NCBI GenBank assembly: GCA_963710755.1
Contig: CAVQBK010000003.1
Location: forward strand, 800,001 to 864,000
DNA length: 64,000 bases
Source of the DNA: an uncultured bacterium
GTDB taxonomy: Bacteria > Oederibacteriota > JAAXVQ01 > JAUVAV01
Direction: 5' to 3'
The translations under genes and the position numbers were made by a program. Below are positions 26,133-48,367 of the stretch, piece by piece. Every line of letters starts with the position of its first letter. Positions within the stretch are counted from its first letter, which is position 1. Below the pieces are notes generated by a model. The model had not been told where the DNA came from, searched no databases, and saw only the letters and a list, made by a program, of their open reading frames with translations.

Positions 26133-26330
26133 CCAGCAAAAGACGTGTCAATAGAATTTTTATTAAGATTGCCAAAAAACTTTAAAAATAATTCGAAAAT
26201 TTTTCATCTTTCGGGAGATCTACGCGATTGCGGGAATAAAGCTTAGACCATTACCAGCACAGGGCCGTTTTGCTTTCCTGTGAACATCAAGCGCGTCATC
26301 GTAACCAACGAGTCCCACGGAGGCATGCGG

Positions 26331-27437
26331 GTGCTAGACTTTTTGAAAAACCGCAGTTTAATTGGTCTGGATATTGGCAATCACATGATCAAGGCTGTCC
26401 AAATGAAACGGAAAGGCGATGCGCTTCGTTTGGTAAGTCTGGCCGTGGCGGAAGTCCCTCCTGAAGTCCAGGAAGAAGCCGATCCCTATCTTAAAAATGA
26501 CCTGCTCTCCGCCTGCATAAAACAGTTGATGAAAGACAATGATATTAAAGGCACCCAGGTGGTTTCGGCCATTGCCGGAGACGCGGTTATTGTCCGCTAC
26601 GTCAAACTGCCTTATATGAGCGAAGACGAACTTAAAAATGTCATCTCCTATGAAGCCGAACAATATATACCCCTGGCCATAGACCAAGTGGTGCTGGATT
26701 TTGAAGTGCTGGGCGAACTGGAAGAGGATGGCCAGCGTAAAATTGAAGTACTGCTGGTGGCCGCCAAAGAAGAAATTATAGAACAACACATGGCCCTTTT
26801 AAAACAAACCGGTCTAGCGCCTGCGGTCATTGACGTGGATTCCTTTGCCCTGCAAAATTGTCATGAATACAATTACGACGTGGTGGCCGGGGAGACGATC
26901 GCCTTGATCAATATCGGCGCCAAGCTGACCACCATCAATATTCTGGAGGGCGGCATTACCCACCTTACCCGGGATGTAGCCGTGGCAGGCAACAATTTCA
27001 CGCGCGAAATCCAGCGTGAATTCGATCTGTCCTTTCCGGAAGCGGAAAAAATGAAAAAGGACGAAGGGGAAGTACTGATTGAATCGGAAGACATTATGCA
27101 AATGGAAATTCCTAAAAAGGATGATAAAGCCACTAAAATAGGAGATTCCTTCACGCCTGTGCTCAACAAATTGGTGGCCGAGATACAGCGTTCCTTTGAT
27201 TACTATGAAAGTTCCATCAAGAAAAGCCCGGTCACCAGGATTATTCTTTCCGGAGGAACATCGCAGCTTAAAAATTTGGATAAATACCTGGCTGAGAAGC
27301 TGGACGTGGCGGTGGAACTAAACAATCCTTTTAAACATATTCAGATACCGGAGAAAGAGTTCGACTTGGAGTATATCGCCGCCAATGCCCAATTGTTTAA
27401 TATTGGCGTGGGCCTGGCCCTGCGTCAGATGGAGTAA
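26331..27437 (+). CDS. pilM: Type IV pilus assembly protein PilM
   Basis: IGLDIG, EAEQYIP, VLLVAA, ALINIGA, LSGG and GLALR motifs. GTG start at 26331 after GGAGG. Confidence 0.93.
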   Translation: MLDFLKNRSLIGLDIGNHMIKAVQMKRKGDALRLVSLAVAEVPPEVQEEADPYLKNDLLSACIKQLMKDNDIKGTQVVSAIAGDAVIVRYVKLPYMSEDELKNVISYEAEQYIPLAIDQVVLDFEVLGELEEDGQRKIEVLLVAAKEEIIEQHMALLKQTGLAPAVIDVDSFALQNCHEYNYDVVAGETIALINIGAKLTTINILEGGITHLTRDVAVAGNNFTREIQREFDLSFPEAEKMKKDEGEVLIESEDIMQMEIPKKDDKATKIGDSFTPVLNKLVAEIQRSFDYYESSIKKSPVTRIILSGGTSQLKNLDKYLAEKLDVAVELNNPFKHIQIPEKEFDLEYIAANAQLFNIGVGLALRQME

Positions 27438-34501: not shown

Positions 34502-35623
34502 ATGAGGCTGGGGCAAGTTAAATACTGGGTCGTTAACCTATGGCTGTTGCTACTGTTTTTTGCCATGCCTTTGCTGGGCACGGTCATGCACGGCCACAGC
34601 CTTGGTGCTTACCTCGTTTTTCCCTTTAAGGCGCGACGCATCGATCACCATGGCTTCTCCTGGATGGTTTTTATCCTGCTGGCGGCTGTGGTCCTGGTGC
34701 CGGTGGTCCTGGTACAAAGCCGCATCTGGCGAACGCCCAAAAAGCATGTTAGTCACCTGTCACCGGTCTATCCCTGGCCTTGGTGGGGTACAGTGGGTAT
34801 ATTGATGTTGGGGCTAAGCTGGTTCTTAGCCTGGACACGGCAGCTTTGGTTTGAATGGGGCCAGTTATTTACCTTTTTCCCCCTCTGGTTTTCCTTTATT
34901 CTTGTGCTCAATGCGCTCACTTATCGGCGCAGTGGGCGATGTCTGTTGATGACCCAGCCTAAGCGGCTGCTTGGGCTCTTTGGTGCCAGTGCGCTGTTTT
35001 GGTGGGGATTTGAATACTTAAATCAATTCGTGGACAACTGGCATTACCTGGGATTGATTCATCTGCCGGATTTGGTCTATGGTCTGAATGCCACCTTGTG
35101 CTTTTCCACAGTATTGCCGGCAGTCGCCAGTACCCGCAACTGGCTGGCCACCTTTCCTCATTTGGGTCGTGGTCTGAATAATGCCTGGAAGGTTACACTG
35201 CATCATCCCCGGCTGTGGGCCTGTTTAGGCCTGGGGTGGAGTTATTTAGGCATGGTGGGATTGGCCCTATGGCCTGACTATCTTTTTCCTTTGTTATGGC
35301 TGGCACCAGCCGGGGCGATGATGAGTTTGCAGGTTTTGCGGCGCCGTTCCAGCTGGTGGACCGATGTGAAAAAAGGGCATTGGCGCGAACTTTACTTATG
35401 GGCTGTGGCCGCTTTGGGATGCGGCTTTCTTTGGGAACTCTGGAATAGTTTGAGTCTGGCTAAATGGGTTTATACGGTGCCTTGGGTGGATCGCTATCAT
35501 CTTTTTGAAATGCCTTTGTTGGGTTATGCGGGGTATTTATTTTTCGGTCTTGAATGTGCCTTGGTGATCTATGCTTTATGGCCACCGTCAGCAGGCAAGA
35601 TTGGCCAGGACAGCAGCAACTAA
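34502..35623 (+). CDS. Trp-rich polytopic membrane protein of unknown function
   Basis: About 9-10 hydrophobic segments; duplicated E-x2-N-x4-5-W-x-Y motif; C-terminal FEMPLLGY; GGAGG SD. Confidence 0.75.
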   Translation: MRLGQVKYWVVNLWLLLLFFAMPLLGTVMHGHSLGAYLVFPFKARRIDHHGFSWMVFILLAAVVLVPVVLVQSRIWRTPKKHVSHLSPVYPWPWWGTVGILMLGLSWFLAWTRQLWFEWGQLFTFFPLWFSFILVLNALTYRRSGRCLLMTQPKRLLGLFGASALFWWGFEYLNQFVDNWHYLGLIHLPDLVYGLNATLCFSTVLPAVASTRNWLATFPHLGRGLNNAWKVTLHHPRLWACLGLGWSYLGMVGLALWPDYLFPLLWLAPAGAMMSLQVLRRRSSWWTDVKKGHWRELYLWAVAALGCGFLWELWNSLSLAKWVYTVPWVDRYHLFEMPLLGYAGYLFFGLECALVIYALWPPSAGKIGQDSSN

Positions 35624-35666
35624 AGGGAATGCTTGTGACGCAGCCAACTGCCCTAGGAGGTGGACC

Positions 35667-36227
35667 ATGTTTAAACCGCCCATCGTTGGAGTGATCCTTA
35701 TGCTGGCCCTATGGTTGACCGCGGTGGTCACTCAAGCCAAACTTAAAACTACCCATTCGGACCATTTGGTCAAGGAGGTCAGCACCATGCATCTTACCAG
35801 CAAAGCTTTTCAAGAAGGAGCATTTATTCCCCTGCGTTATACCTGTGATGGTCAGGACATCTCACCGCCTCTGCAATGGAGTCAAGTGCCTACGGAGGCG
35901 AAAAGCCTGGTCCTGATCTGTGATGATCCTGATGCCCCCATGGGCACCTGGGTCCACTGGATTGTGGTGGACCTGCCACCTGACAGCAAGGGATTGGCCG
36001 AAGGGGAGCCTGTGCCCAAACCGGCCCGGGAACTTAAAAACAGTTCCGGCCGCATAACCTATGGCGGCCCTTGTCCGCCTCACGGCATACACCGGTACTT
36101 TTTTAAACTTTACGCTCTGGATGTGCCGACGCTGGAAAAAGTCACACCGCAAACATTGCCGGCTCTGCTTCAGGAGCATACACTGGCGGAAGTGCACTTG
36201 ATGGGCCGCTATCAACGGCAACAGTAA
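35667..36227 (+). CDS. YbhB/YbcL (PEBP/RKIP-like) protein with two possible in-frame starts
   Basis: DDPDAP..WVHW, YGGPCPP and HRYFFKLYAL motifs. AGGAGGT SD precedes both ATG 35667 and ATG 35787. Confidence 0.92.
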   Translation: MFKPPIVGVILMLALWLTAVVTQAKLKTTHSDHLVKEVSTMHLTSKAFQEGAFIPLRYTCDGQDISPPLQWSQVPTEAKSLVLICDDPDAPMGTWVHWIVVDLPPDSKGLAEGEPVPKPARELKNSSGRITYGGPCPPHGIHRYFFKLYALDVPTLEKVTPQTLPALLQEHTLAEVHLMGRYQRQQ

Positions 36228-37684: not shown

Positions 37685-39721
37685 ATGGATACATTAGAAT
37701 ATAAAGATTTGTTTATCAGCGAGTCTTTGGAACACTTGGATCAGCTTAACCAAGCCCTGCTGGCACTGGAAAAAGACCCTCAAAATCCCAATGCCCTCAA
37801 TGAAATCTTTAGAACTTCCCATACCCTCAAAGGCATGGCCGCCACCATGGGCTTTGATCAAATTACCGAATTAACCCATCAAATGGAAAATATTCTGGAC
37901 AAAATGCGTAGCAATGAACAGGAAGTCACCACAGACGTCATTGATATCCTGTTTGAATGCCTCGATGCCTTGGGGTTACTGATTGAAGAAATCTCCAGCG
38001 CTGATCCCAAACATTTGGATTTGAGTTTGCTGCTGGGGAAATTAAATGATCTGGAGCATCAAAAACACGATGCCAGCAAACCGGTCGTAAAAAAGATAAC
38101 AGCCGGCCAAGAGGAAACGTCTCAAGGCCAAGTGGTGGAGCAGGAAGTCACCAAGGATCATCTGGAAGATTTATTGACCCACGCCGCCCAGGAAAATTAT
38201 GTCACTTATGGCATTACCGTGCAGGTGGAAGAGAGCTGTACCTTCAAGGGGGTGCGTGCCTTCATGGTGTATAAAGCTCTTTCCGAACAAGGTGAAATCA
38301 TTGCCAGTATTCCGGCACCGGAAATATTGCAGGAAGGCGAGTTCGGTCTGGAATTCATCCTGGTATTGCTCTCCAAGCGGGCCAAAACCTTCATTGAACG
38401 GGCCATCAAAAACGTGGCTGAAATCGCCTCCTTTGCCGTAGAAGTACTTTCTGAAGAAAATTTGGAAGGCTTCCTCGAAGAAAAACAGGCCGACGGCCGC
38501 ATGCTGGTAAGCAACGCGATAGCCAAGGAGGATGTGCAGCCCAAACAACAGGCCCAGCAGAAAAATGTTAACCGTATTTTGCAGAGCATTCGGGTCAGCA
38601 TCGAACGGCTGGACAATCTGCAAAATCTGGTGGGCGAATTGATCATCAACAAAATCCGCTTAATGCAATTATCCAAGCAATTTGATTTGGGCGAGCTTAA
38701 AGAAGCCCTGGCCCAGTTTGACCGCATTACCAACGAATTACAGGATGAAGTGACGGAAGTGCGCATGGTGCCCATGGAGCATATTTTCAACCGTTTTCCA
38801 CGCATGGTGCGCGATCTGGCCAAGGAGAATGGCAAGGAAATCGAGTTGGTCATGGAAGGCAAGGACATTGAGCTGGATCGCACGGTGCTCGACGAAATTC
38901 ACGATCCCCTGGTACACCTGCTGCGCAATTCCATTGACCATGGCATTGAGCCGCCTGATGAACGGCTGGCTATGCATAAGGCGCGGGTGGGTCAGATCCG
39001 GTTGGTGGCGACCAGGGAAAAAAATCATGTCATCATCAAAGTTTATGATAACGGCCGGGGTATTGATTCGGCCAGGATCAAGCAATTGGCGTTGGAACGG
39101 GGATTGATCAGTCGCGATGAAGCGGAACGGATGAACGACCAGGAGGCCATCAACCTGGTGGCATTGCCCGGCTTTACCACGGCCACTAAAGTTACTGAGA
39201 TCAGCGGCCGCGGGGTGGGGGTAGACGCGGTGCGTACCAAGATCGAATCTTTTGGCGGTAATTTGAGCATAGAAAGCGAGGTCGGCAAGGGCAGCACCTT
39301 TATTTTAAGGATGCCCATGACGCTGGCGATCATCCAGGCACTGCTTTTTAGAACCAAAGAAGAAATTTACGCCATTCCGGTTATTAATACGGTGGAAACC
39401 ATTGAATACAATGACGAAGACATTAAATTGGTGCAGCAAGGAGAAGTGGTACTTTACCGCAACAGCGTGCTGCCCCTGGTCAGGTTACATCAGCTTCTGG
39501 AAGTCCCCGGACCGGAGCATCAGGGCGAAGGCCGGGCGATTTTGATCACGGAAGTAGGCGACATGCGTGTTGGCCTGCTGGTGGATGAAGTGCTGGGGCA
39601 GCAGGAAATTGCCATCAAATCCCTGGGACAAATGCTCAAAGGCATCCGCGGCCTGTCAGGGGTCACAATTTTAGGCGACGGACGTATTGCTTTGGTGCTG
39701 GATGTACCGAGTTTGATTTAA
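37685..39721 (+). CDS. cheA: Chemotaxis histidine kinase CheA (Hpt, P2, dimerisation, HATPase and CheW-like domains)
   Basis: FRTSHTLKG, HLLRNSIDHG, DNGRG, SGRGVG and TILGDG motifs. Confidence 0.97.
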   Translation: MDTLEYKDLFISESLEHLDQLNQALLALEKDPQNPNALNEIFRTSHTLKGMAATMGFDQITELTHQMENILDKMRSNEQEVTTDVIDILFECLDALGLLIEEISSADPKHLDLSLLLGKLNDLEHQKHDASKPVVKKITAGQEETSQGQVVEQEVTKDHLEDLLTHAAQENYVTYGITVQVEESCTFKGVRAFMVYKALSEQGEIIASIPAPEILQEGEFGLEFILVLLSKRAKTFIERAIKNVAEIASFAVEVLSEENLEGFLEEKQADGRMLVSNAIAKEDVQPKQQAQQKNVNRILQSIRVSIERLDNLQNLVGELIINKIRLMQLSKQFDLGELKEALAQFDRITNELQDEVTEVRMVPMEHIFNRFPRMVRDLAKENGKEIELVMEGKDIELDRTVLDEIHDPLVHLLRNSIDHGIEPPDERLAMHKARVGQIRLVATREKNHVIIKVYDNGRGIDSARIKQLALERGLISRDEAERMNDQEAINLVALPGFTTATKVTEISGRGVGVDAVRTKIESFGGNLSIESEVGKGSTFILRMPMTLAIIQALLFRTKEEIYAIPVINTVETIEYNDEDIKLVQQGEVVLYRNSVLPLVRLHQLLEVPGPEHQGEGRAILITEVGDMRVGLLVDEVLGQQEIAIKSLGQMLKGIRGLSGVTILGDGRIALVLDVPSLI

Positions 39722-39886: not shown

Positions 39887-40534
39887 ATGGCCGATGAGTT
39901 ACGTCAGGAGGATGGAAAGTTGCCGGATATTCGGGCCTTAACCAAACTACAACTGGATGCCATTCGGGAAGTGGGCAATGTTGGTGCCGGTCATGCAGCC
40001 ACGGCATTGTCCCAAATGATCGGAAAGAAGATTCTGATAACGGTGCCCAAAGTTTTATGCATGCCCATCGAGAAGACCAGCGACTTGGTGGGCGGCCCCA
40101 AGAACCTGGTGGCTGGCGTAACCATGCAGGTTTTGGGTGACGTGTCGGCCAAGATCGTACTCATGCTGCCGCGAAAAAGCGCATTGCAACTGGCCGGGCT
40201 GCTAACGCAAAATGACCTGGAAGAACATCAGCCCTTGTCGGCAATGGAACATTCTGCTATAAAAGAAGCAGGCAATATTCTGGCCGGCGCTTACCTCAAC
40301 GCGCTTACCGAATTTTTAGGACTCATGCTGCTCCAGAGCGTGCCCCAACTGGTGTTTGACATTGCCGACGCCGTGGTCACGGAGATTGCCAAAGGTTATC
40401 CGCCCATGACAGAGATCATCTGCATTGGCACCCAGTTCAGTGAATCGGAGAGTATTATGCAGGGCTTCCTGTTATTGATTCCTGATCAAGCATCTTTGGA
40501 TGCAATCTTAAAGGCTACCCAAATAAATGCATGA
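39887..40534 (+). CDS. cheC: CheY-P phosphatase CheC
   Basis: Two E-x-x-N motifs (DAIREVGN, SAIKEAGN) and GFLLLIP. Confidence 0.92.
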   Translation: MADELRQEDGKLPDIRALTKLQLDAIREVGNVGAGHAATALSQMIGKKILITVPKVLCMPIEKTSDLVGGPKNLVAGVTMQVLGDVSAKIVLMLPRKSALQLAGLLTQNDLEEHQPLSAMEHSAIKEAGNILAGAYLNALTEFLGLMLLQSVPQLVFDIADAVVTEIAKGYPPMTEIICIGTQFSESESIMQGFLLLIPDQASLDAILKATQINA

Positions 40535-42666
40535 GTGAACAGCCCTTGATTTTTTCATTGGATATCGGCACCCGCAAAGTGGCGGGGGTGGTGCTGACCA
40601 GGACGGCGGAAGGATTGAGCGTGCTGGCCGCGGATATGCTCGAGCACCCGGACCGGGCCATGCTTGACGGCCAAGTGCACAAGGTTGAAGCCGTGGCCCA
40701 AGTGGTGCGCCAGCTTAAAGCTTCCCTGGAAAAGCAACTGGGACGGCCTTTAACCACAGCTTGTGTGGCAGCTGCCGGACGGGCGCTGCTCACCGAGTCC
40801 TTCGAGAAAAAAATTAACTTTCCCTACCCAACGGAAATCACCCGACCGGAAGTACGGGCCTTGGAGCTGTCTGCAGCCCGGGGCGCTCAAGCTGCCTTAC
40901 AAGCCAAAGAAAAAAACTACCAACTCCACTGCGTGGGTTATTCCACGGTGCATTACCAACTGGACGGTGAGATCATCGAGGATCTGGTTGGGCATCAGGC
41001 CAAAAGCATCAGCGCCAAAGTCATTGCCACCTTTTTGCCGCGGCAAGTGGTGGATGCGCTCCTGACGGTATTGCGTCAAGCCGGGCTGGAAGCAGAACAA
41101 CTGACCTTGGAGCCTATTGCCGCTATCGAGGCCACTATTCCTCAGGATTTACGACGTATGAATCTGGCGCTGGTTGATATTGGCGCCGGCACGTCCGATA
41201 TTGCCCTGACCCGGGAAGGATCGGTGTTTGCTTATGATATGGTCACCATTGCCGGTGATGAAGTTACCGAGTACTTGAGCGATCACTATTTATTGGAGTT
41301 TCACGAAGCAGAGCGGGTAAAACGAGCGTTGCTGCTTACCGATAGTCCGACCATCAGGTTCCAAACCTTACTGGGACAGGAACAGGAGCTTGCCAAACAG
41401 GAAATGATCGCGACCTTGGAACCGGCGGTCAACCGCTTGGCCGAAGCCATTGGTCAGGGGATCTTAAAACTCAATGAGCAACCCCCTCGGGCGGTGATCA
41501 TGGTAGGCGGTGGAAGCGGCACACCCAACCTGGGTCCGGCCTTGGCCCGCTTGCTGCAGGTTGACCCGCACCGCATTGGGGTGAGGGGGCCGCAAACCAT
41601 TACCAGTATTAAAAATAGGCCGGCCAACATGGCAGGCATTGAATGGGTGACGCCCATGGGTATTGGCCTGATTGCCGCCCAAGACCAGGGCTTGCGCTTT
41701 AAAAAAATTAAGGTTAATGACCGCTGGGTGCAGTTATTGGCACTCCACGATCATACCACCCTATTTGATGCCTTGCTGGCCGCAGGCCACGATGCTAAAC
41801 ACCTAGTGGCCCGGCCGGGCCGGGCGGTGACCTACACAGTGGATGGCCAATTCATGAGTTTGCCCGGCGCACCGGGCCAGCCGGCGGAGCTCACAGTCAA
41901 TGGACAGATAGCCAATTTGGACACGCCGCTGCCGGAGGATGCAGTCATTAAGGTGACAGAAGCCCAACCAGGACAGGACGCTGAACTGACCACGGCCATG
42001 ATCCGCCAACCTCAGGGCCAGAGTTTTTGTCTTATTAATCAGGTTCAAGTGCCACTGACGCTGGCCTTATTTGACCATGACCAGCCGGTGGACCACAAGC
42101 AACCTATTGCCGACCGGGCGGTCCTGCAATGGCGCAGCGCTCAATCTCTGGAAGCTTTGGTGCCGGAATTAAGGCAGCGGTTGGACCAAGAACGGCAAAT
42201 GACCATCAAGATCAACGGCCAGGAACGCAAACTAAAAGAGTCCAAAGTGACGATCATGAAAGACGGCCGGCCTTTGGAGACCAATTACCATCCCTGTCCT
42301 GGCGACCGTATTGTCTGGCAGGTGGAAGAAGAGAAAAAAATGGTGCTGCGCGAACTGGTGGAAACCCTGCCCCAACGCCAGACCATCACCGTCACCCTTA
42401 ACGGCGAACCCAAGGTGATTGATGCCGGCGGCAGCAAAATTCTCATCAACGGACAGGTGGCGGCTCATCCTGCTGTTGATCTTCAGGACCGCGATGAGGT
42501 GCGCGTGGAACATGTTCCCGGAGCACCGCCGCTATTGTCCCAAGTGCTCGAAGGCCTGACCCCACCGCCGCAAGCGGGGCCTATTAAAATCAAGGTCAAC
42601 GGCCAAGCCGCCGGATTTGCCACGCCCTTGGAAGACGGCGCTAAAATCGAAATTTCTTTTGGATAA
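40531..42666 (+). CDS. Long FtsA/PilM-family actin-like ATPase with C-terminal ubiquitin-like (beta-grasp) repeats
   Basis: SLDIGTRKV, LEPIAA, VDIGAGTSDI and VGGGS motifs, plus a ~320 aa tail with repeated VNG..L.DG-like motifs. Confidence 0.85.
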   Translation: MSEQPLIFSLDIGTRKVAGVVLTRTAEGLSVLAADMLEHPDRAMLDGQVHKVEAVAQVVRQLKASLEKQLGRPLTTACVAAAGRALLTESFEKKINFPYPTEITRPEVRALELSAARGAQAALQAKEKNYQLHCVGYSTVHYQLDGEIIEDLVGHQAKSISAKVIATFLPRQVVDALLTVLRQAGLEAEQLTLEPIAAIEATIPQDLRRMNLALVDIGAGTSDIALTREGSVFAYDMVTIAGDEVTEYLSDHYLLEFHEAERVKRALLLTDSPTIRFQTLLGQEQELAKQEMIATLEPAVNRLAEAIGQGILKLNEQPPRAVIMVGGGSGTPNLGPALARLLQVDPHRIGVRGPQTITSIKNRPANMAGIEWVTPMGIGLIAAQDQGLRFKKIKVNDRWVQLLALHDHTTLFDALLAAGHDAKHLVARPGRAVTYTVDGQFMSLPGAPGQPAELTVNGQIANLDTPLPEDAVIKVTEAQPGQDAELTTAMIRQPQGQSFCLINQVQVPLTLALFDHDQPVDHKQPIADRAVLQWRSAQSLEALVPELRQRLDQERQMTIKINGQERKLKESKVTIMKDGRPLETNYHPCPGDRIVWQVEEEKKMVLRELVETLPQRQTITVTLNGEPKVIDAGGSKILINGQVAAHPAVDLQDRDEVRVEHVPGAPPLLSQVLEGLTPPPQAGPIKIKVNGQAAGFATPLEDGAKIEISFG

Positions 42667-42672
42667 CTGTTA

Positions 42673-43767
42673 ATGACTGATGACCAATTGGCACTCATTG
42701 CCCTCAACCGGATCGAGGGTCTGGGACCCACCACTATCCATCGTTTGTGCACCCACTTTCAGAATCCCCAAGCTGTTTTCGATGCGTCTTTTACCGACTT
42801 GATCAGCCTGCCTCATGTCAATGAAAACGTGGCTAAGCGTTTGCTGCACGAAGATTGGCGGTATCAGGCCATGAGGGAGTTGGAAAAGGCCGAAGACCAA
42901 CAATGTCATATCCTGACCTGGGACCATCCCGACTATCCCAGGCTGCTTAAGGCCGTGGACTTTCCCCCGCCCGTGATCTATGTGAAAGGCCGCCTGGCGG
43001 CTGAAGATCATCAGGCGTTGGCCTTAGTGGGTTGCCGCAAACCCACAGCCTATGGTCAGCAGGCAGCCAAATCCTTTACCAAAGCACTGGTTAAAGCGGG
43101 GTTCACCATTGTCTCCGGTTTGGCTTATGGCATTGACCGGGTGGCCCATGAAACCGCGCTGGAACAGGGCGGCCGAACCCTAGCCGTTGTAGCCCATGGG
43201 GTGGATGGCCTTTACCCACAAGCCCATCGCAGCTTACGGGATACCATCATTACCCAAGGTGCCGTTATTTCCGAATTTCCTTTGGGTACACCGGCCTTGG
43301 CGCAACATTTTCCCAGACGCAACCGCCTTATCAGTGGTCTGGCACAAGGCGTGTTGGTTATAGAAGCAGCCCAGCGCTCAGGAGCGTTGATTACCGCCAA
43401 ATGGGCGGGAGAGCAAGGCCGGGAAGTGTTTGCTTTGCCGGGCCCCTATTTTTCCGCCCAATCCCAAGGTTGCCATAATCTGATTGCAGACGGGGCCAAA
43501 CTGGTCACCTCTCTTAAAGATATTGTGGGAGAACTGCCGGCTGTTCCCATAGCCCCACCTCAACCATCGCCTGAGTCCGCGGAACCAGTCCCTTTAGGAG
43601 AACAGGAAGCCGCCATTGTGCATCTGCTGCAGGTCCAACCCTTACATATTGATCAACTAAGCCAACACCTGGAGTGCCCGGTACAGGACCTTTTTGCAAA
43701 CCTTTTGACTTTGGAACTCAAAGGGATTATCATTGGCCGTCCGGGACAACACTACCAGCTTGCCTGA
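42673..43767 (+). CDS. dprA: DNA-processing protein DprA
   Basis: IVSGLAYGID, FPRRNRLISG and SGALITA motifs, with a C-terminal wHTH (LELKG). Confidence 0.96.
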   Translation: MTDDQLALIALNRIEGLGPTTIHRLCTHFQNPQAVFDASFTDLISLPHVNENVAKRLLHEDWRYQAMRELEKAEDQQCHILTWDHPDYPRLLKAVDFPPPVIYVKGRLAAEDHQALALVGCRKPTAYGQQAAKSFTKALVKAGFTIVSGLAYGIDRVAHETALEQGGRTLAVVAHGVDGLYPQAHRSLRDTIITQGAVISEFPLGTPALAQHFPRRNRLISGLAQGVLVIEAAQRSGALITAKWAGEQGREVFALPGPYFSAQSQGCHNLIADGAKLVTSLKDIVGELPAVPIAPPQPSPESAEPVPLGEQEAAIVHLLQVQPLHIDQLSQHLECPVQDLFANLLTLELKGIIIGRPGQHYQLA

Positions 43768-43797
43768 GTCTATCGTTTGTGTCGAAAGGACCAATCC

Positions 43798-44568
43798 ATG
43801 TCCATGCGGTTTGTCATGATTATACTATTGGCGGGCGTCGGCTTGCTGGCCGGGACCGTGAACAGTCATGCGCAGCTTACGGCTGGCGCCGGTATGGCTT
43901 ATGAAATCAGCAAATTGTCGGTGATAGACGAAAGTGACCGCTATTTCCACACCCTGCTGCAAAGCACGTTGATCATGGCCTCGGTGACTTATGAGCAGCC
44001 GGCTTTGGCCCTGGAGCTGCAAGGCGGCTGGTCTGATTGGAATGTGAGCGGTGACTGGCAGGGCACTAATGTGGCCCAAACCAGTACGGACCTACTGGGT
44101 TGGCTGGCCCAGCAGCAAATGGCCTTAAAGGCCGTGGTTAGACCATGGTCCAATGTTTATGTTGGCGCCAGAGTGGAAGACATCCGGCAGCGTCATTACT
44201 CGGGACAGGATGATATCACCTTTTTGACGCTTCACAGCCTGGCCTGGGAAATGCTTGCTGGCTGGGAATGGTTTCACTATAAAGGAGTTCACCTGTCTTC
44301 GGAACTGGGGTTTGCCCCGCAAGGCCGGTTATGGGTGGGCCAGAACACGCATATCCCCCTTCAGGAATTTGCCCTTCACGAGTATAGTGAGGCCGCCCGC
44401 TTTAATCGCCTGCGCGGGACTATGGCCATGATCTATGATGACAGCGAAGGCTGGAGATTAGCGCTGGCTTATACTTTGGACTACAGCCAAGCCCAGCAGC
44501 TGAACAGGCTTAAGTCGTTGTCTGTACGTCATGGCCAATTGCGGGCATTATTCTCCCTCAAGTTTTAA
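43798..44568 (+). CDS. Putative outer-membrane beta-barrel protein
   Basis: Signal peptide (..SHA|Q), alternating aromatic/hydrophobic strands, C-terminal Phe (LFSLKF). Confidence 0.6.
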   Translation: MSMRFVMIILLAGVGLLAGTVNSHAQLTAGAGMAYEISKLSVIDESDRYFHTLLQSTLIMASVTYEQPALALELQGGWSDWNVSGDWQGTNVAQTSTDLLGWLAQQQMALKAVVRPWSNVYVGARVEDIRQRHYSGQDDITFLTLHSLAWEMLAGWEWFHYKGVHLSSELGFAPQGRLWVGQNTHIPLQEFALHEYSEAARFNRLRGTMAMIYDDSEGWRLALAYTLDYSQAQQLNRLKSLSVRHGQLRALFSLKF

Positions 44569-44915: not shown

Positions 44916-47213
44916 ATGGCAAAGCATCTGGTTATTGTGGAATCCCCAGCCAAAGCGAAAACCATCAACAAGTTTCTGGGGAAAAATTATCTTGTCAAAG
45001 CCTCCATGGGCCATGTTCGTGATTTACCCAAAAGTAAACTCGGCGTGGACGTTGAAGATCACTTCAAACCTCACTATATTACCATCCGGTCCAGATCGAA
45101 AATTTTAAAAGAATTAAAACGCATGGCCAACACAGCTCAACATATATACCTGGCCGCTGACCCGGACCGGGAAGGGGAGGCCATTTCCTGGCACCTGAGC
45201 AAAGAATTGCAAACCGCCAAAAATCAGGTACACCGGGTGATGTTTAATGAAATCACTAAAAAAACGGTATTGGAAGCCATTCAAAAACCTCTGGAGATCA
45301 ACCAAAATATGGTTAATGCCCAGCAGGCTCGTCGTATTCTGGATCGTCTGGTGGGATACAGCATCTCGCCTTTATTATGGAAAAAGGTGAGAAAAGGTCT
45401 TTCCGCCGGTCGGGTGCAATCCGTCACGGTCCGGCTGGTGGTGAACCGCGAGCGTGAAATCGAGGCCTTCTTGCCCAAGGAATATTGGAAAATCGATGTG
45501 CTTCTGGAAACCGAGGACAAGGCCTCGTTGCTGTCCCATGTTACTCACGTGGGGGAGCAGAAAATCGACATTGACAATGGAACCGACGCCCAAGCTGTGG
45601 TGGAAACACTTAACACCGCGGCCTATCGGGTGTCCCATATTGAGAAAAAAGAACAGAGACGAAAACCACCGGCGCCTTTTATCACCAGTAAATTACAACA
45701 GGAAGCTGCCAGCAAACTTCACTTTACCGCCAAAAAAACCATGATGGTGGCTCAGCAACTGTACGAAGGCTTGGAAATCGGCCAGGATGGACCGGTGGGG
45801 TTGATCACTTATATGCGCACCGACTCCATGCGTGTTAACGAGGAAGCGCAGACTCAAGCGCGGGCCTATATCAGCGAGCACTACGGCGCGGATTTTGTGC
45901 CGGAAAAACCGCCGGTGTATAAATCCAAGAAACAAATCCAGGATGCCCATGAAGCTATTCGTCCCTCCACGCCCAGTGCGGACTATACGCCCGACAGTCT
46001 TAAACAATACCTTAGCCACGATCAATACCGGTTGTATAAATTGATTTGGCAACGATTTTTAGCCTCCCAAATGACACCGGCCGTGTTTGATGCCACTACC
46101 GTGGACATTGAGGCTGGTCATGTTCGGCTGCGCACAACAGGGTCTATTTTGAAATTCAAGGGCTTTACCACGGTCTATATGGAAACCGCCGCCGAAGGCC
46201 AGGAGGAAGCGCAAGACAACCAGGACAGCCACCTGCCTGATCTGCAACAGGGTCAGGCGCTCTTTTTATTGGAAATTAAACCGGAACAAAAATTCACCCA
46301 ACCGCCGCCGCGCTATAATGATGCCAGTCTGGTCAAGGCCTTGGAGGAAAACAATATCGGAAGGCCCAGCACCTATGCTCCTATTATCAGCACCATTCTG
46401 GACCGTGATTATGTGGAGCGCCGGGAAGGCCGTTTCTTCCCGACCGAGCTGGGCATGATCATCAATGATCTGCTGGTGGAACATTTCCCCGATATCCTGG
46501 ATGTGGAATTCACAGCCGCCATGGAGAATAACCTGGACAGCATTGAAGAAGGCCAGGCTCAGTGGGATCAAGTGCTCGCTCAATTTTACCAGTCTTTCAA
46601 GCTGGAATTGGACAAGGCCCAGGAGGAGATGAAAAATATCAAATCCAAGGTGGAAGTGGAGCTGGAGCAGCGTTGTGAAAAATGCGGCTCTCCTTTAACG
46701 GTAAAGTGGGGACGTCATGGTAAATTCATTGCCTGCACCAATTACCCTGCCTGCAAAAATACCAAACCCATGGCGGTAGATGATCAGGGCAAGATCGTGG
46801 TCAAGGAAGAAGAAACCGTGGAGGAAACCTGTGAAAAATGCGGTTCGCCACTGGTGGCTAAATACGGCCGTTTTGGCCGTTTTCTGGCCTGCAGCCGATA
46901 TCCGGAATGCAAGTTTACCAAGGCCATCAATCAGGAAATCGGGGTAGCTTGCCCCAAGCCGGACTGCGGCGGTCAAATCATTGAACGACGCAGTAAAAAA
47001 GGCAGACTGTTTTATGGCTGCAGCCATTACCCCAAGTGCGACTTTGTGTCCTGGGACCGTCCTGTGCCTCAGGCCTGCCCGGTGTGCGGGCAGGCTTATG
47101 TGGTGGAAAAATATTCCAAAAAAACAGGTAAGACTATCCAATGTCCGGCAGAGGGTTGTGATTATAAAGTGGCGCTCAATCCGGAAACTCCTTCGCAAGG
47201 ACAATCGACATGA
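44916..47213 (+). CDS. topA: DNA topoisomerase I with four C-terminal zinc ribbons
   Basis: IVESPAKAKTI, DPDREGE, SAGRVQS, ITYMRTD and GRPSTY motifs, plus four C4 repeats. Confidence 0.98.
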   Translation: MAKHLVIVESPAKAKTINKFLGKNYLVKASMGHVRDLPKSKLGVDVEDHFKPHYITIRSRSKILKELKRMANTAQHIYLAADPDREGEAISWHLSKELQTAKNQVHRVMFNEITKKTVLEAIQKPLEINQNMVNAQQARRILDRLVGYSISPLLWKKVRKGLSAGRVQSVTVRLVVNREREIEAFLPKEYWKIDVLLETEDKASLLSHVTHVGEQKIDIDNGTDAQAVVETLNTAAYRVSHIEKKEQRRKPPAPFITSKLQQEAASKLHFTAKKTMMVAQQLYEGLEIGQDGPVGLITYMRTDSMRVNEEAQTQARAYISEHYGADFVPEKPPVYKSKKQIQDAHEAIRPSTPSADYTPDSLKQYLSHDQYRLYKLIWQRFLASQMTPAVFDATTVDIEAGHVRLRTTGSILKFKGFTTVYMETAAEGQEEAQDNQDSHLPDLQQGQALFLLEIKPEQKFTQPPPRYNDASLVKALEENNIGRPSTYAPIISTILDRDYVERREGRFFPTELGMIINDLLVEHFPDILDVEFTAAMENNLDSIEEGQAQWDQVLAQFYQSFKLELDKAQEEMKNIKSKVEVELEQRCEKCGSPLTVKWGRHGKFIACTNYPACKNTKPMAVDDQGKIVVKEEETVEETCEKCGSPLVAKYGRFGRFLACSRYPECKFTKAINQEIGVACPKPDCGGQIIERRSKKGRLFYGCSHYPKCDFVSWDRPVPQACPVCGQAYVVEKYSKKTGKTIQCPAEGCDYKVALNPETPSQGQST

Positions 47214-48367
47214 GCGCTCTTAAACTGCCCGCGCTTCGTCCCATCGTGGAGAACATTCCCCTTCAGACCGCCAAACTGGACCGGATTTTAGCGGAGAGTC
47301 AGAGCCGGGTGGCCAGCTATCTCGATATCCGTTATCAAGACTGCCAGGAAATTATTTTCCTACTTGGCGGCAAAGCCGTTAAAGCCGGCCGCTTCAGCAG
47401 CAAGGACAACAGCCGCATGAGCTTGAATGTCAAGGATGCCCTGCAGCGCTTGAAGCAGCAGGAAGACGGTATGATCCACTTTTATGAAATCTCCAAAGTG
47501 CTGATGGTGGTCATCCTGGGGACTTTTGTGTTCAAACCCACCCATGCTAAATTAAAAAGCAAGCTCATTGATTTTCACAGCCTGCTCGAATTGCTGGCGC
47601 GCAAGCATTTTATAGGTTATTTGGAATTGAAGACCCGTACAGGTCTTAATTATCTGACCTTTTTTAACGGCCAGGCGCGGGACGGTTACTTTGCCGATGA
47701 TGTCAGTGCTTTGCAGGATAAGAAACCTGCGGAGATCATTGCCGCTTTGGTGGAACAGTCGGATGAAAAAGGTGAGATCAATGTTTTTGAATCCGTGGGG
47801 GAGGAAGAATTGCATGACCATGGTCGCGGTGCCTCTCCTGAAGAAAGACCACAAATGCAAGGCCCGGCTGCCACTCCCTATGCTGATGTGGAAAGTACGG
47901 ATCAGTACGCGGCAGAGATGGTCGACCTCTGTGTGGTGGCCATCTTTGAAGAACTCTTTCGGCTTATGGTCACAATCAGTGCCCGCCAGCTGCCGGCCAC
48001 GGCCATTGACACCTTGTTCATGGAATGTCTTAAAAACGCCACGTTAAAGCATGCCACCTTGTTACGGGGAGCCGGCACCAAGGAGGATGGCGCTTTGTTG
48101 CCCACGGGGCTCATTAATTTTGAACGCTTGCTTAAATCCAAGGACAAATTGCCTTCCACGACCAGGGAAAAGGATTTTATGGAAGGGCTGACGGACCTGA
48201 CGGCTTTTCGCCTGACGGCCATGCAACGCGAACTGGAACCATCGCTTTTCCAGCAGGGGGTGGACGAGTTGCGGTCCAAACTGACAGGCTTTCGCAAGAA
48301 TTATCAAGGCAACTATGCCATTACTAAATATATCGACGCCTTGACCCGCCTATTCGACCAGTTGTAA
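47210..48367 (+). CDS. Hypothetical protein with a tandem duplicated N-terminal domain (DUF4388/PATAN-like)
   Basis: Two repeats (SYLDIRY..IIFLLGG and FIGYLEL..LTFFNG) and a helical C-terminus; ATGA overlap with topA. Confidence 0.6.
   Translation: MSALKLPALRPIVENIPLQTAKLDRILAESQSRVASYLDIRYQDCQEIIFLLGGKAVKAGRFSSKDNSRMSLNVKDALQRLKQQEDGMIHFYEISKVLMVVILGTFVFKPTHAKLKSKLIDFHSLLELLARKHFIGYLELKTRTGLNYLTFFNGQARDGYFADDVSALQDKKPAEIIAALVEQSDEKGEINVFESVGEEELHDHGRGASPEERPQMQGPAATPYADVESTDQYAAEMVDLCVVAIFEELFRLMVTISARQLPATAIDTLFMECLKNATLKHATLLRGAGTKEDGALLPTGLINFERLLKSKDKLPSTTREKDFMEGLTDLTAFRLTAMQRELEPSLFQQGVDELRSKLTGFRKNYQGNYAITKYIDALTRLFDQL

Follow-up and report, generated by a model that had tools for sequence, protein, structure and literature searches.

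An FtsA/PilM-branch actin-fold protein with a tail of ubiquitin-like modules, encoded directly behind cheA and cheC

Chemotaxis is among the best-studied signalling pathways, and its chemoreceptor arrays are positioned by ParA-type ATPases such as ParC of Vibrio and PpfA of Rhodobacter. Beyond E. coli and B. subtilis, little is known of its accessory components, and no actin-fold protein is known to belong to it. FtsA, an actin-fold protein of cell division, is tethered to the membrane by a C-terminal amphipathic helix. Here, we describe a gene, called X throughout, on the plus strand of a 64,000-nucleotide stretch of contig CAVQBK010000003.1 from an uncultured bacterium (this whole stretch is the window). 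X encodes an FtsA/PilM-like ATPase followed by a tail of ubiquitin-like (Ubl) modules, and lies directly behind cheA and cheC. The fold is known, whereas its architecture and genomic context are new.

In the polyUbl proteins described by Iyer et al. 2006 (PMC1779556), two or three Ubl domains follow each other, and the genes for E1, E2 and JAB-type proteins accompany them. Neither FtsA nor HSP70 is mentioned in the retrieved portions of the beta-grasp surveys PMC1779556 and PMC1949818. A full-text search, outside which most subscription journals fall, returned no paper on an FtsA-like protein with a ThiS/ubiquitin-like tail or on an actin-fold protein in che operons.

The gene and its N-terminal part are as follows.

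40531..42666, plus strand: X, complete open reading frame (ORF) with stop codon, 711 aa; FtsA/PilM-like ATPase with a poly-ubiquitin-like tail
40531..41685, plus strand: X head, residues 1-385; actin-fold ATPase of the FtsA/PilM type

An ORF check of the window showed the frame to be intact and to translate to 711 aa. The nucleotide motifs of the actin fold were found at residues 10-14 (LDIGT), 194-198 (EPIAA), 216-223 (DIGAGTSD) and 325-329 (VGGGS). Across an alignment of 84 full-length relatives, D216, G218, G220, T221, D223, E194-A198 and G326-S329 are invariant, and D11, G13 and T14 are conserved in at least 90%. Such conservation is consistent with a working nucleotide site, and the site is intact in X.

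AlphaFold2 modelled full-length X with a mean predicted local distance difference test score (pLDDT) of 90.4 and a predicted template modelling (TM) score of 0.70. The best Foldseek matches of the head were the FtsA structures 7q6g, 7q6f, 7q6d and 1e4g (E values of 1e-28 to 1e-26), with target TM-scores of 0.82-0.84 over 389-404 columns, which is nearly the whole of the solved FtsA. PilM followed (1e-21 to 1e-18), then EutJ (1.6e-14), MreB and Hsp70. Comparing a profile of the X family with the sequences of the PDB likewise placed FtsA (1.5e-22) before PilM (1.6e-10) and EutJ (8.5e-10, 3h1q). The Pfam models for FtsA, PilM_2 and MreB all match within residues 133-356, and the Pfam DDR model matches 7 of 36 relatives. 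X scores 90.7 bits against the FtsA equivalog TIGR01174, under its cut-off of 175.85; 60.2 bits against the PilM model TIGR01175, under its cut-off of 133; and 61.9 bits against the NCBIfam model of EutJ.

A maximum-likelihood tree was built from 39 actin-fold sequences, namely the paralogues of six genomes and 13 database relatives of X, with X trimmed to its head, MreB and DnaK included and EutJ left out. X formed a clade of its own (support 100/99), as did FtsA (99/98) and PilM (99/97), and the three stood together against MreB and DnaK (100/99). The grouping of X with PilM (90/74) carries a long-branch warning, so that X, FtsA and PilM are treated here as branching in no settled order. X is a third lineage of the FtsA/PilM branch, distinct from the FtsA of the divisome.

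Other members of this superfamily are encoded elsewhere in the genome. Its true ftsA, scoring 469.6 bits on TIGR01174, is found on the same contig ~376 kb from X, within the order ddl, 287-aa ORF, ftsA, ftsZ. PilM (256.7 bits on TIGR01175), MreB and DnaK are also encoded. A true FtsA is present in addition to X in 5/5 bacterial genomes examined, that of the window included, and the Methanolobus genome examined has X and no true FtsA. The true FtsA of the genome scores 64.9 bits on the EutJ models, on par with X; the EutJ matches of X therefore reflect the shared fold. The PilM gene is itself in the window, at 26280-27434 (plus strand), ~13 kb upstream of X, which places two members of the FtsA/PilM branch within 15 kb.

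A preliminary description of this DNA, made from the sequence alone, had located the four actin-fold motifs in residues ~1-385, where all of them are indeed found, and had taken X for a distinct actin-fold ATPase, putatively a cytoskeletal or scaffold protein. The FtsA score under the cut-off and the separate clade both agree with its being distinct from FtsA, and a separate canonical ftsA beside ftsZ, which that reading implies, does exist. The phylogeny against FtsA, PilM and MreB, with EutJ left out, puts X outside the canonical FtsA. The description had also stated that X lacks the C-terminal helix of FtsA. Consistent with this, the C-terminus is ...ISFG, a beta strand at residues 705-710 closes the full-length model, and residues 386-711 consist entirely of beta-grasp-like modules. 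Its statement that long relatives named FtsA exist in Firmicutes was likewise correct, as the database relatives of X show; these are named FtsA, PilM, "rod shape-determining protein" or "cell division FtsA domain-containing protein".

The tail was divided as follows.

41686..41976, plus strand: module 1, residues 386-482; the most complete ThiS/SAMP-like beta-grasp, with hairpin, helix, inserted hairpin, VNG strand and closing strand
42010..42186, plus strand: unit 2, residues 494-552; four strands then helices, the most degenerate in sequence; matches units 3 and 4 at 98.6-99.0% in hhalign
42187..42372, plus strand: unit 3, residues 553-614; matches unit 4 at 99.3% in hhalign
42373..42564, plus strand: unit 4, residues 615-678; matches the other units in hhalign
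42565..42663, plus strand: terminal half unit, residues 679-711; ThiS-like, ends in ...ISFG

From hhalign and the modelled secondary structure, the tail is laid out as an N-terminal hairpin and helix, four full units of ~50 aa (~431-479, 496-540, 555-598 and 617-663) and a terminal half unit (683-711). Each full unit has four strands followed by a short helix or linker. All 10/10 pairs of tail segments matched one another in hhalign with probabilities of 96.6-99.3%. Units 2, 3 and 4 matched mutually at 98.6-99.3% and each matched the C-terminal half of module 1 at 97.0-98.5%, and the last segment aligned only to the C-terminal halves of the other units. Judged by these profile comparisons, the repeats are true homologues, alike beyond chance.

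Modelled alone with 83 relatives, the tail reached a mean pLDDT of 92.8. Its top Foldseek matches were the linear tetra-ubiquitins 5b83_A (E 6.1e-7) and 7yui, the Ubl array of USP7 (2ylm and 5c56, E 2e-4 to 1e-3) and multi-ubiquitin proteins of Citrobacter and E. coli. An independent structure alignment with VIA-align against 48,161 chains matched tail residues 1-99 to SAMP1 (4hro, Z 8.2), BubA (9eav_C, 7.8), RnfH (7.8) and TGS (7.3), and tail residues 230-326, that is units 4 and 5 together, to MoaD (Z 7.5), Mth1743 (7.4) and ThiS (6.6). In the middle of the tail, the Raf RBD was matched at residues 109-220 (Z 7.1), and ThiS (6.5) and an Urm1-related protein (6.1) at residues 170-289. These single-domain beta-grasps each cover two adjacent units (2-3 or 3-4), and in the model units 2-4 may be complete beta-grasps, permuted ones, or units that share helices with their neighbours.

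Against the assignment to the ubiquitin-like fold, Z-scores of 6-8 are in the middling range on the tool's own scale. Moreover, SLBB-type proteins (transcobalamin, haptocorrin, Wza, GfcC and ComEA) align to the tail comparably (Z 5.9-7.6), and the fold search alone does not separate the ubiquitin-like from the soluble-ligand-binding subclass of beta-grasps. The sequence matches place the tail on the ubiquitin-like side: Pfam ThiS matches residues 669-708 of X (27.0 bits, threshold 22.5) and TGS residues 688-708, and among the 36 relatives ThiS matches 26 (best E 6.5e-14), Ub-Mut7C 19 and TGS 13.

The tail is less conserved than the head (mean pairwise identity of 31% vs 49% among relatives); module 1 and the last module are the most conserved (40% each) and unit 2 has a mean pairwise identity of 25%. 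A GG end occurs in 1/84 relatives and a G end in 17/84, and 41/84 carry a C-terminal extension of up to 26 aa past the last module. Neither the neighbours of X in the window nor the 147 neighbour ORFs of the 25 loci described below include E1-like, E2-like, JAB, ThiF/MoeB, ThiG or MoaE genes. With modules that are internal and no conserved Gly-Gly end, the arm of X does not seem built for conjugation, and a conjugating or sulfur-carrying role is unlikely.

The preliminary description had seen in this tail about five ubiquitin-like beta-grasp repeats ending in a single Gly. The tail model and its poly-ubiquitin and ThiS/MoaD/SAMP top matches speak for the fold, and five is a fair count. The five repeat strings it quoted are all present, as is the single Gly (...ISFG), and the rarity of GG ends among relatives extends the last point beyond this one protein. 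An "extra (I/V)NG hairpin" had been placed before most repeats; the hairpin is there, but hhalign and the secondary structure make it part of the repeat unit rather than an addition to it.

Further observations concern the extent of the tail in other genomes. Many matches to the X profile in Clostridia end at profile positions ~495-640, in open frames of 582-690 aa (582 aa, for example, in G483, G513 and G622), so the tail is shorter or much diverged in part of the family, and module number seems to vary across it. Two Bacillota genomes have X as a pair of neighbouring fragments (G285:C1:180942-183103 and G595:C32:15879-17562); in one of these genomes the match contains an in-frame TAG. The split copies are possibly pseudogenes or sequencing errors.

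The immediate neighbours of X in the window are the following.

37685..39721, plus strand: cheA, 678 aa; Pfam Hpt, P2, H-kinase_dim, HATPase_c and CheW; first gene of the cluster
39887..40534, plus strand: cheC, 215 aa; CheY-P phosphatase family (Pfam CheC 2e-21, CheX 1.6e-9)
42673..43767, plus strand: dprA; Pfam DNA_processg_A 2.1e-78, starting 6 nt past the X stop

The gene order is cheA-cheC-X, and the stop of cheC and the start of X overlap by 4 nt. This cheA encodes the sole CheA of the genome (a single H-kinase_dim match); two cheW genes and a second cheC are located ~220 kb away. The cheC product scores 164 bits on the NCBIfam model CheC_Thtogales, under its cut-off of 250. With cheA, cheC and dprA as neighbours, X is remote from ftsZ and the division and cell wall (dcw) genes, as had been said of it, but the earlier account had taken its context only in this negative sense and had overlooked the position directly behind cheA-cheC. 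This adjacency is the one strong functional lead for X. On the other side, dprA is possibly co-transcribed with X, though we do not count it within the system; no terminator-like site was found on the plus strand between X and dprA in a promoter and terminator scan that yielded no more sites than shuffled sequence and so does not bear on where the operon ends.

The arrangement is conserved in the phylum to which the window belongs. A CheA dimerisation domain was found upstream of X, on the same contig and strand, in 39/49 X matches. The gap between the domain and X is 1588-1889 nt in 38 cases, which corresponds to the remainder of cheA plus one cheC, and 3678 nt in one. At one more locus (G095:C212, a contig of 3982 nt) the C-terminal part of cheA, cheC and X follow each other in this order, giving 40/49 with CheA, and with CheC where this was checked, directly upstream; the other 9/49 matches are fragments or lie too near contig ends to be assessed. 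The cheA-cheC-X order spans many families of the phylum. Among 30 loci fetched from it, 26 contain a complete X, and 24 of these 26 have an ORF of 201-217 aa directly upstream, at a distance of -4 to 126 nt; the remaining two are misses of the ORF caller. All 27 of the X-adjacent ORFs that were aligned match Pfam CheC (27/27: the ORF of the window, 23 of its phylum, two of Methanolobus and one of a further metagenome-assembled genome). A natural CheC-X fusion, suggested by two relatives with open frames of 907 and 915 aa, was rejected, as the added stretch is not CheC but comes from reading GC-rich DNA out of frame, and is rich in Arg, Gly and Pro.

Context across lineages was read from 25 loci, taken from a scan in which each species was represented by a single genome. 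The order is cheB-cheA-cheC-X-cheR-cheC-cheC in two Methanolobus loci (archaea) and cheY-cheB-cheA-X-cheC-cheY in a metagenome-assembled genome of an unrelated bacterium. X is thus associated with che genes through an order conserved in its phylum that recurs in an archaeon and in another bacterium. The pilus genes pilN/O/P/Q were not found beside X in the window or in the 25 loci.

The joint occurrence of X and CheA was scored in three large groups, with one Clostridia genome left unscored.

Own phylum (read by eye): X in 47/99, CheA in 73/99; both 45, X only 2, CheA only 28, neither 24
Bacilli: X in 109/301, CheA in 206/301; both 108, X only 1, CheA only 98, neither 94
Clostridia: X in 51/250, CheA in 90/250; both 51, X only 0, CheA only 39, neither 160

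CheA is present in 204/207 of the X-bearing genomes, and X is restricted almost wholly to CheA-bearing genomes in these groups. The two X-bearing genomes of the phylum in which CheA was not found have a completeness of 89-90%, and in both X lies at the end of a contig. Two further observations concern the CheA side. In one family of the phylum (f12), CheA occurs in 27/31 genomes and X in only 3. The CheA proteins beside X mostly match the dimerisation model at E <= ~1e-16, those of X-less genomes mostly at ~1e-13 to 1e-15. This suggests that X goes with one particular class of chemotaxis system.

Based on the gene order and the phyletic pattern, X is probably an accessory scaffold or regulator ATPase of chemotaxis, a functional assignment that we hold with somewhat more confidence than doubt. 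X would be cytoplasmic, its core joined without a linker to the arm of five ThiS/ubiquitin-like modules. The core would bind ATP and thereby shift its association state, as in FtsA and PilM. The beta-grasp arm would serve as a protein-binding adaptor, most likely for CheC and/or CheA, and X could in this way organise or tune the signalling complex, with an effect on chemotaxis.

Several observations weigh against a role in chemotaxis. None of the Bacillota loci examined has che genes next to X. Six Bacilli loci have a divergent aroA-ccpA(-motP) group upstream of X; X faces ytxJ/ytxH/ytxG(-murC) in five of them, and an ABC transporter is found downstream in the sixth (L044). X is beside aroA in two Brevibacillus loci, between nth and a GAF-GGDEF gene in three Clostridia loci, and after pfk in three Peptococcaceae-type loci, with lgt downstream in two of these. 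The phyletic pattern has its own limits. There are 165 CheA-bearing genomes without X (28 + 98 + 39), so X is dispensable for chemotaxis as such and would be an accessory, not a core, component. The sampled genomes are related, so that the nesting counts, which are not tree-corrected, suggest more independent cases than there are. Descent may explain why non-motile lineages, reduced Bacilli for instance, have neither gene, and the presence of CheA also follows motility in general.

Genes of cyclic-di-GMP signalling were seen beside X in L006, L007 and L008 (Clostridia) and in L054, with the GAF-GGDEF gene directly downstream and HD_5 (HD-GYP-type) genes nearby. These neighbours may tie X to motility control in a further way, or may reflect no more than local synteny.

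The archaeal swimming organelle (archaellum) is unrelated to the bacterial flagellum, and the che system is shared between the two. As X occurs in a Methanolobus che operon, the che core is the shared element, which favours a role in signalling over one in the flagellum. A more far-reaching version of the chemotaxis role is possible, and we put it forward only tentatively, since it could well be wrong. X may be a component of CheC-type chemotaxis that is widespread but has so far escaped recognition. It would assemble with the help of ATP, and its arm would hold CheC and/or CheA at the receptor array, or it would position the array. It would then be the actin-fold counterpart of the ParA-type array-positioning ATPases, common to several bacterial phyla and passed to archaea with the che operon.

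That X belongs to the motility apparatus, as a component or an assembly factor that acts in the placement or assembly of flagella or pili in the manner of PilM rather than in signalling, is an unlikely alternative, though the best of those we considered. PilM is the weakly supported sister group of X (90/74), motP is three genes from X in 4 Bacilli loci, and CheA follows motility generally, so the nesting counts would fit this role equally. The conserved neighbours of X, however, are cheA and cheC and not flagellar or pilus genes, and in Methanolobus X sits inside the che operon. The genome moreover has a separate PilM, and X is not flanked by pilN/O/P/Q. The order aroA-ccpA-motP also occurs in B. 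subtilis, which is not known to carry X, and this bears against the role.

It is improbable that X is a chaperone or reactivase-type ATPase of the acetate and sugar kinase/Hsc70/actin (ASKHA) superfamily, comparable to EutJ or the diol-dehydratase reactivase, with the arm recognising a client (a Che protein or another). EutJ models do match the core, and Pfam DDR matches some relatives, but FtsA is matched much more strongly and over almost all of its solved structure, the EutJ matches stem from the shared fold, since the true FtsA has them too, and no microcompartment or diol dehydratase genes were found in the 25 loci.

We see equally little prospect for X as a second cytoskeletal protein of division or cell shape whose location behind cheA-cheC would be meaningless. 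Such a role would agree with FtsA as the best match in sequence and structure and with murC a few genes from X in Bacilli. It leaves aside the cheA-cheC-X order in 40/49 matches of the phylum and its recurrence in Methanolobus and another metagenome-assembled genome, as well as the near-confinement of X to CheA-bearing genomes; X also lacks the membrane-tethering helix, and a complete ddl-ftsA-ftsZ cluster is present elsewhere. Finally, that the tail modules are ThiS/MoaD-type sulfur carriers or conjugatable Ubl modifiers, as the ThiS, MoaD and SAMP matches in sequence and fold and the bacterial multi-ubiquitin proteins among the fold matches might suggest, is close to refuted by the internal position of four of the five modules, the GG end in a single relative, the C-terminal extensions in 41/84 and the absence of E1, E2, JAB, ThiF/MoeB, ThiG and MoaE genes from the neighbours in the window and the 25 loci.

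The surroundings of the cluster contain a few other genes of interest. Downstream of dprA lie topA and xerC-like genes. The order dprA-topA-...-xerC recalls the Bacillus order smf-topA-gid-codV, where trmFO holds the place of a 385-aa ORF found here between topA and the xerC-like gene (47210-48367, plus strand; 4-nt overlap with the topA stop); this ORF has no Pfam or NCBIfam match. Between dprA and topA, a 263-aa ORF (43777-44568, plus strand) with a hydrophobic N-terminus and no Pfam match may encode an outer-membrane or secreted protein. Upstream of cheA, a Trp-rich, very hydrophobic ORF of 373 aa without a Pfam match (34502-35623, plus strand) adjoins a PEBP-family gene (35571-36227), whose called start overlaps it.

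The X family is common, and its members are routinely mislabelled FtsA, PilM or MreB. With it, the FtsA/PilM branch of bacterial actins gains a third lineage, and its tandem ThiS-like domains are an unusual use of this fold apart from conjugation or sulfur transfer. If the role in chemotaxis is true, X would represent a kind of component new to the pathway, a scaffold that is driven by ATP and bears a ubiquitin-like adaptor arm, and a testable handle on the organisation of CheC-type systems; X occurs in cultivable, motile Bacillota, among them Brevibacillus, Niallia, Cytobacillus and Ruminiclostridium, where gene knock-outs and imaging are routine.

Among known systems, X shares the actin fold and the nucleotide motifs with FtsA (TIGR01174, PF14450; 7q6g, 7q6f, 7q6d, 1e4g, 4a2a). 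It differs in scoring under the FtsA cut-off, in forming a separate clade, in its place behind cheA-cheC instead of the dcw cluster, and in carrying a 326-aa beta-grasp tail in place of the C-terminal helix. PilM (TIGR01175; 2ych, 5eou) shares the FtsA/PilM branch with X; it ranks second among the structural matches and is a possible sister group. It has no ubiquitin-like tail, however, and X is under the PilM cut-off and without pilN/O/P/Q neighbours.

The modules of the tail share the signature VNG...L.DGD.I.I with ThiS, MoaD and SAMP (PF02597; 1f0z, 1fm0, 1vjk, 4hro), to which they align with Z 6.3-8.2. Unlike these proteins, they stand in tandem behind an ATPase, with no Gly-Gly end and no E1-like or sulfur-transfer genes nearby, and units 2-4 are ~50-60 aa long, with four strands and then a helix. 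Tandem Ubl domains in one bacterial polypeptide are also found in the Bub/6E multi-ubiquitin proteins (9d5a, 9d59, 9cd2; preprint PMC11601603). X differs from these and the polyUbl proteins in its ATPase head, its ~five modules and its place among chemotaxis genes, and no E1, E2 or JAB neighbours were found in the window or the 25 loci. The five Ubl domains of USP7 (2ylm, 5c56), in cis to an enzyme domain, resemble the arm of X; USP7 is a eukaryotic deubiquitinase with no sequence relation to X, and is cited purely as an analogy, to illustrate a poly-Ubl arm with a regulating or recruiting role. The ParA-type array positioners have a Walker-type ATPase fold unrelated to the actin fold of X, and may nevertheless offer a functional analogy, that of a nucleotide-dependent, self-associating ATPase that organises the signalling arrays and is encoded with che genes.

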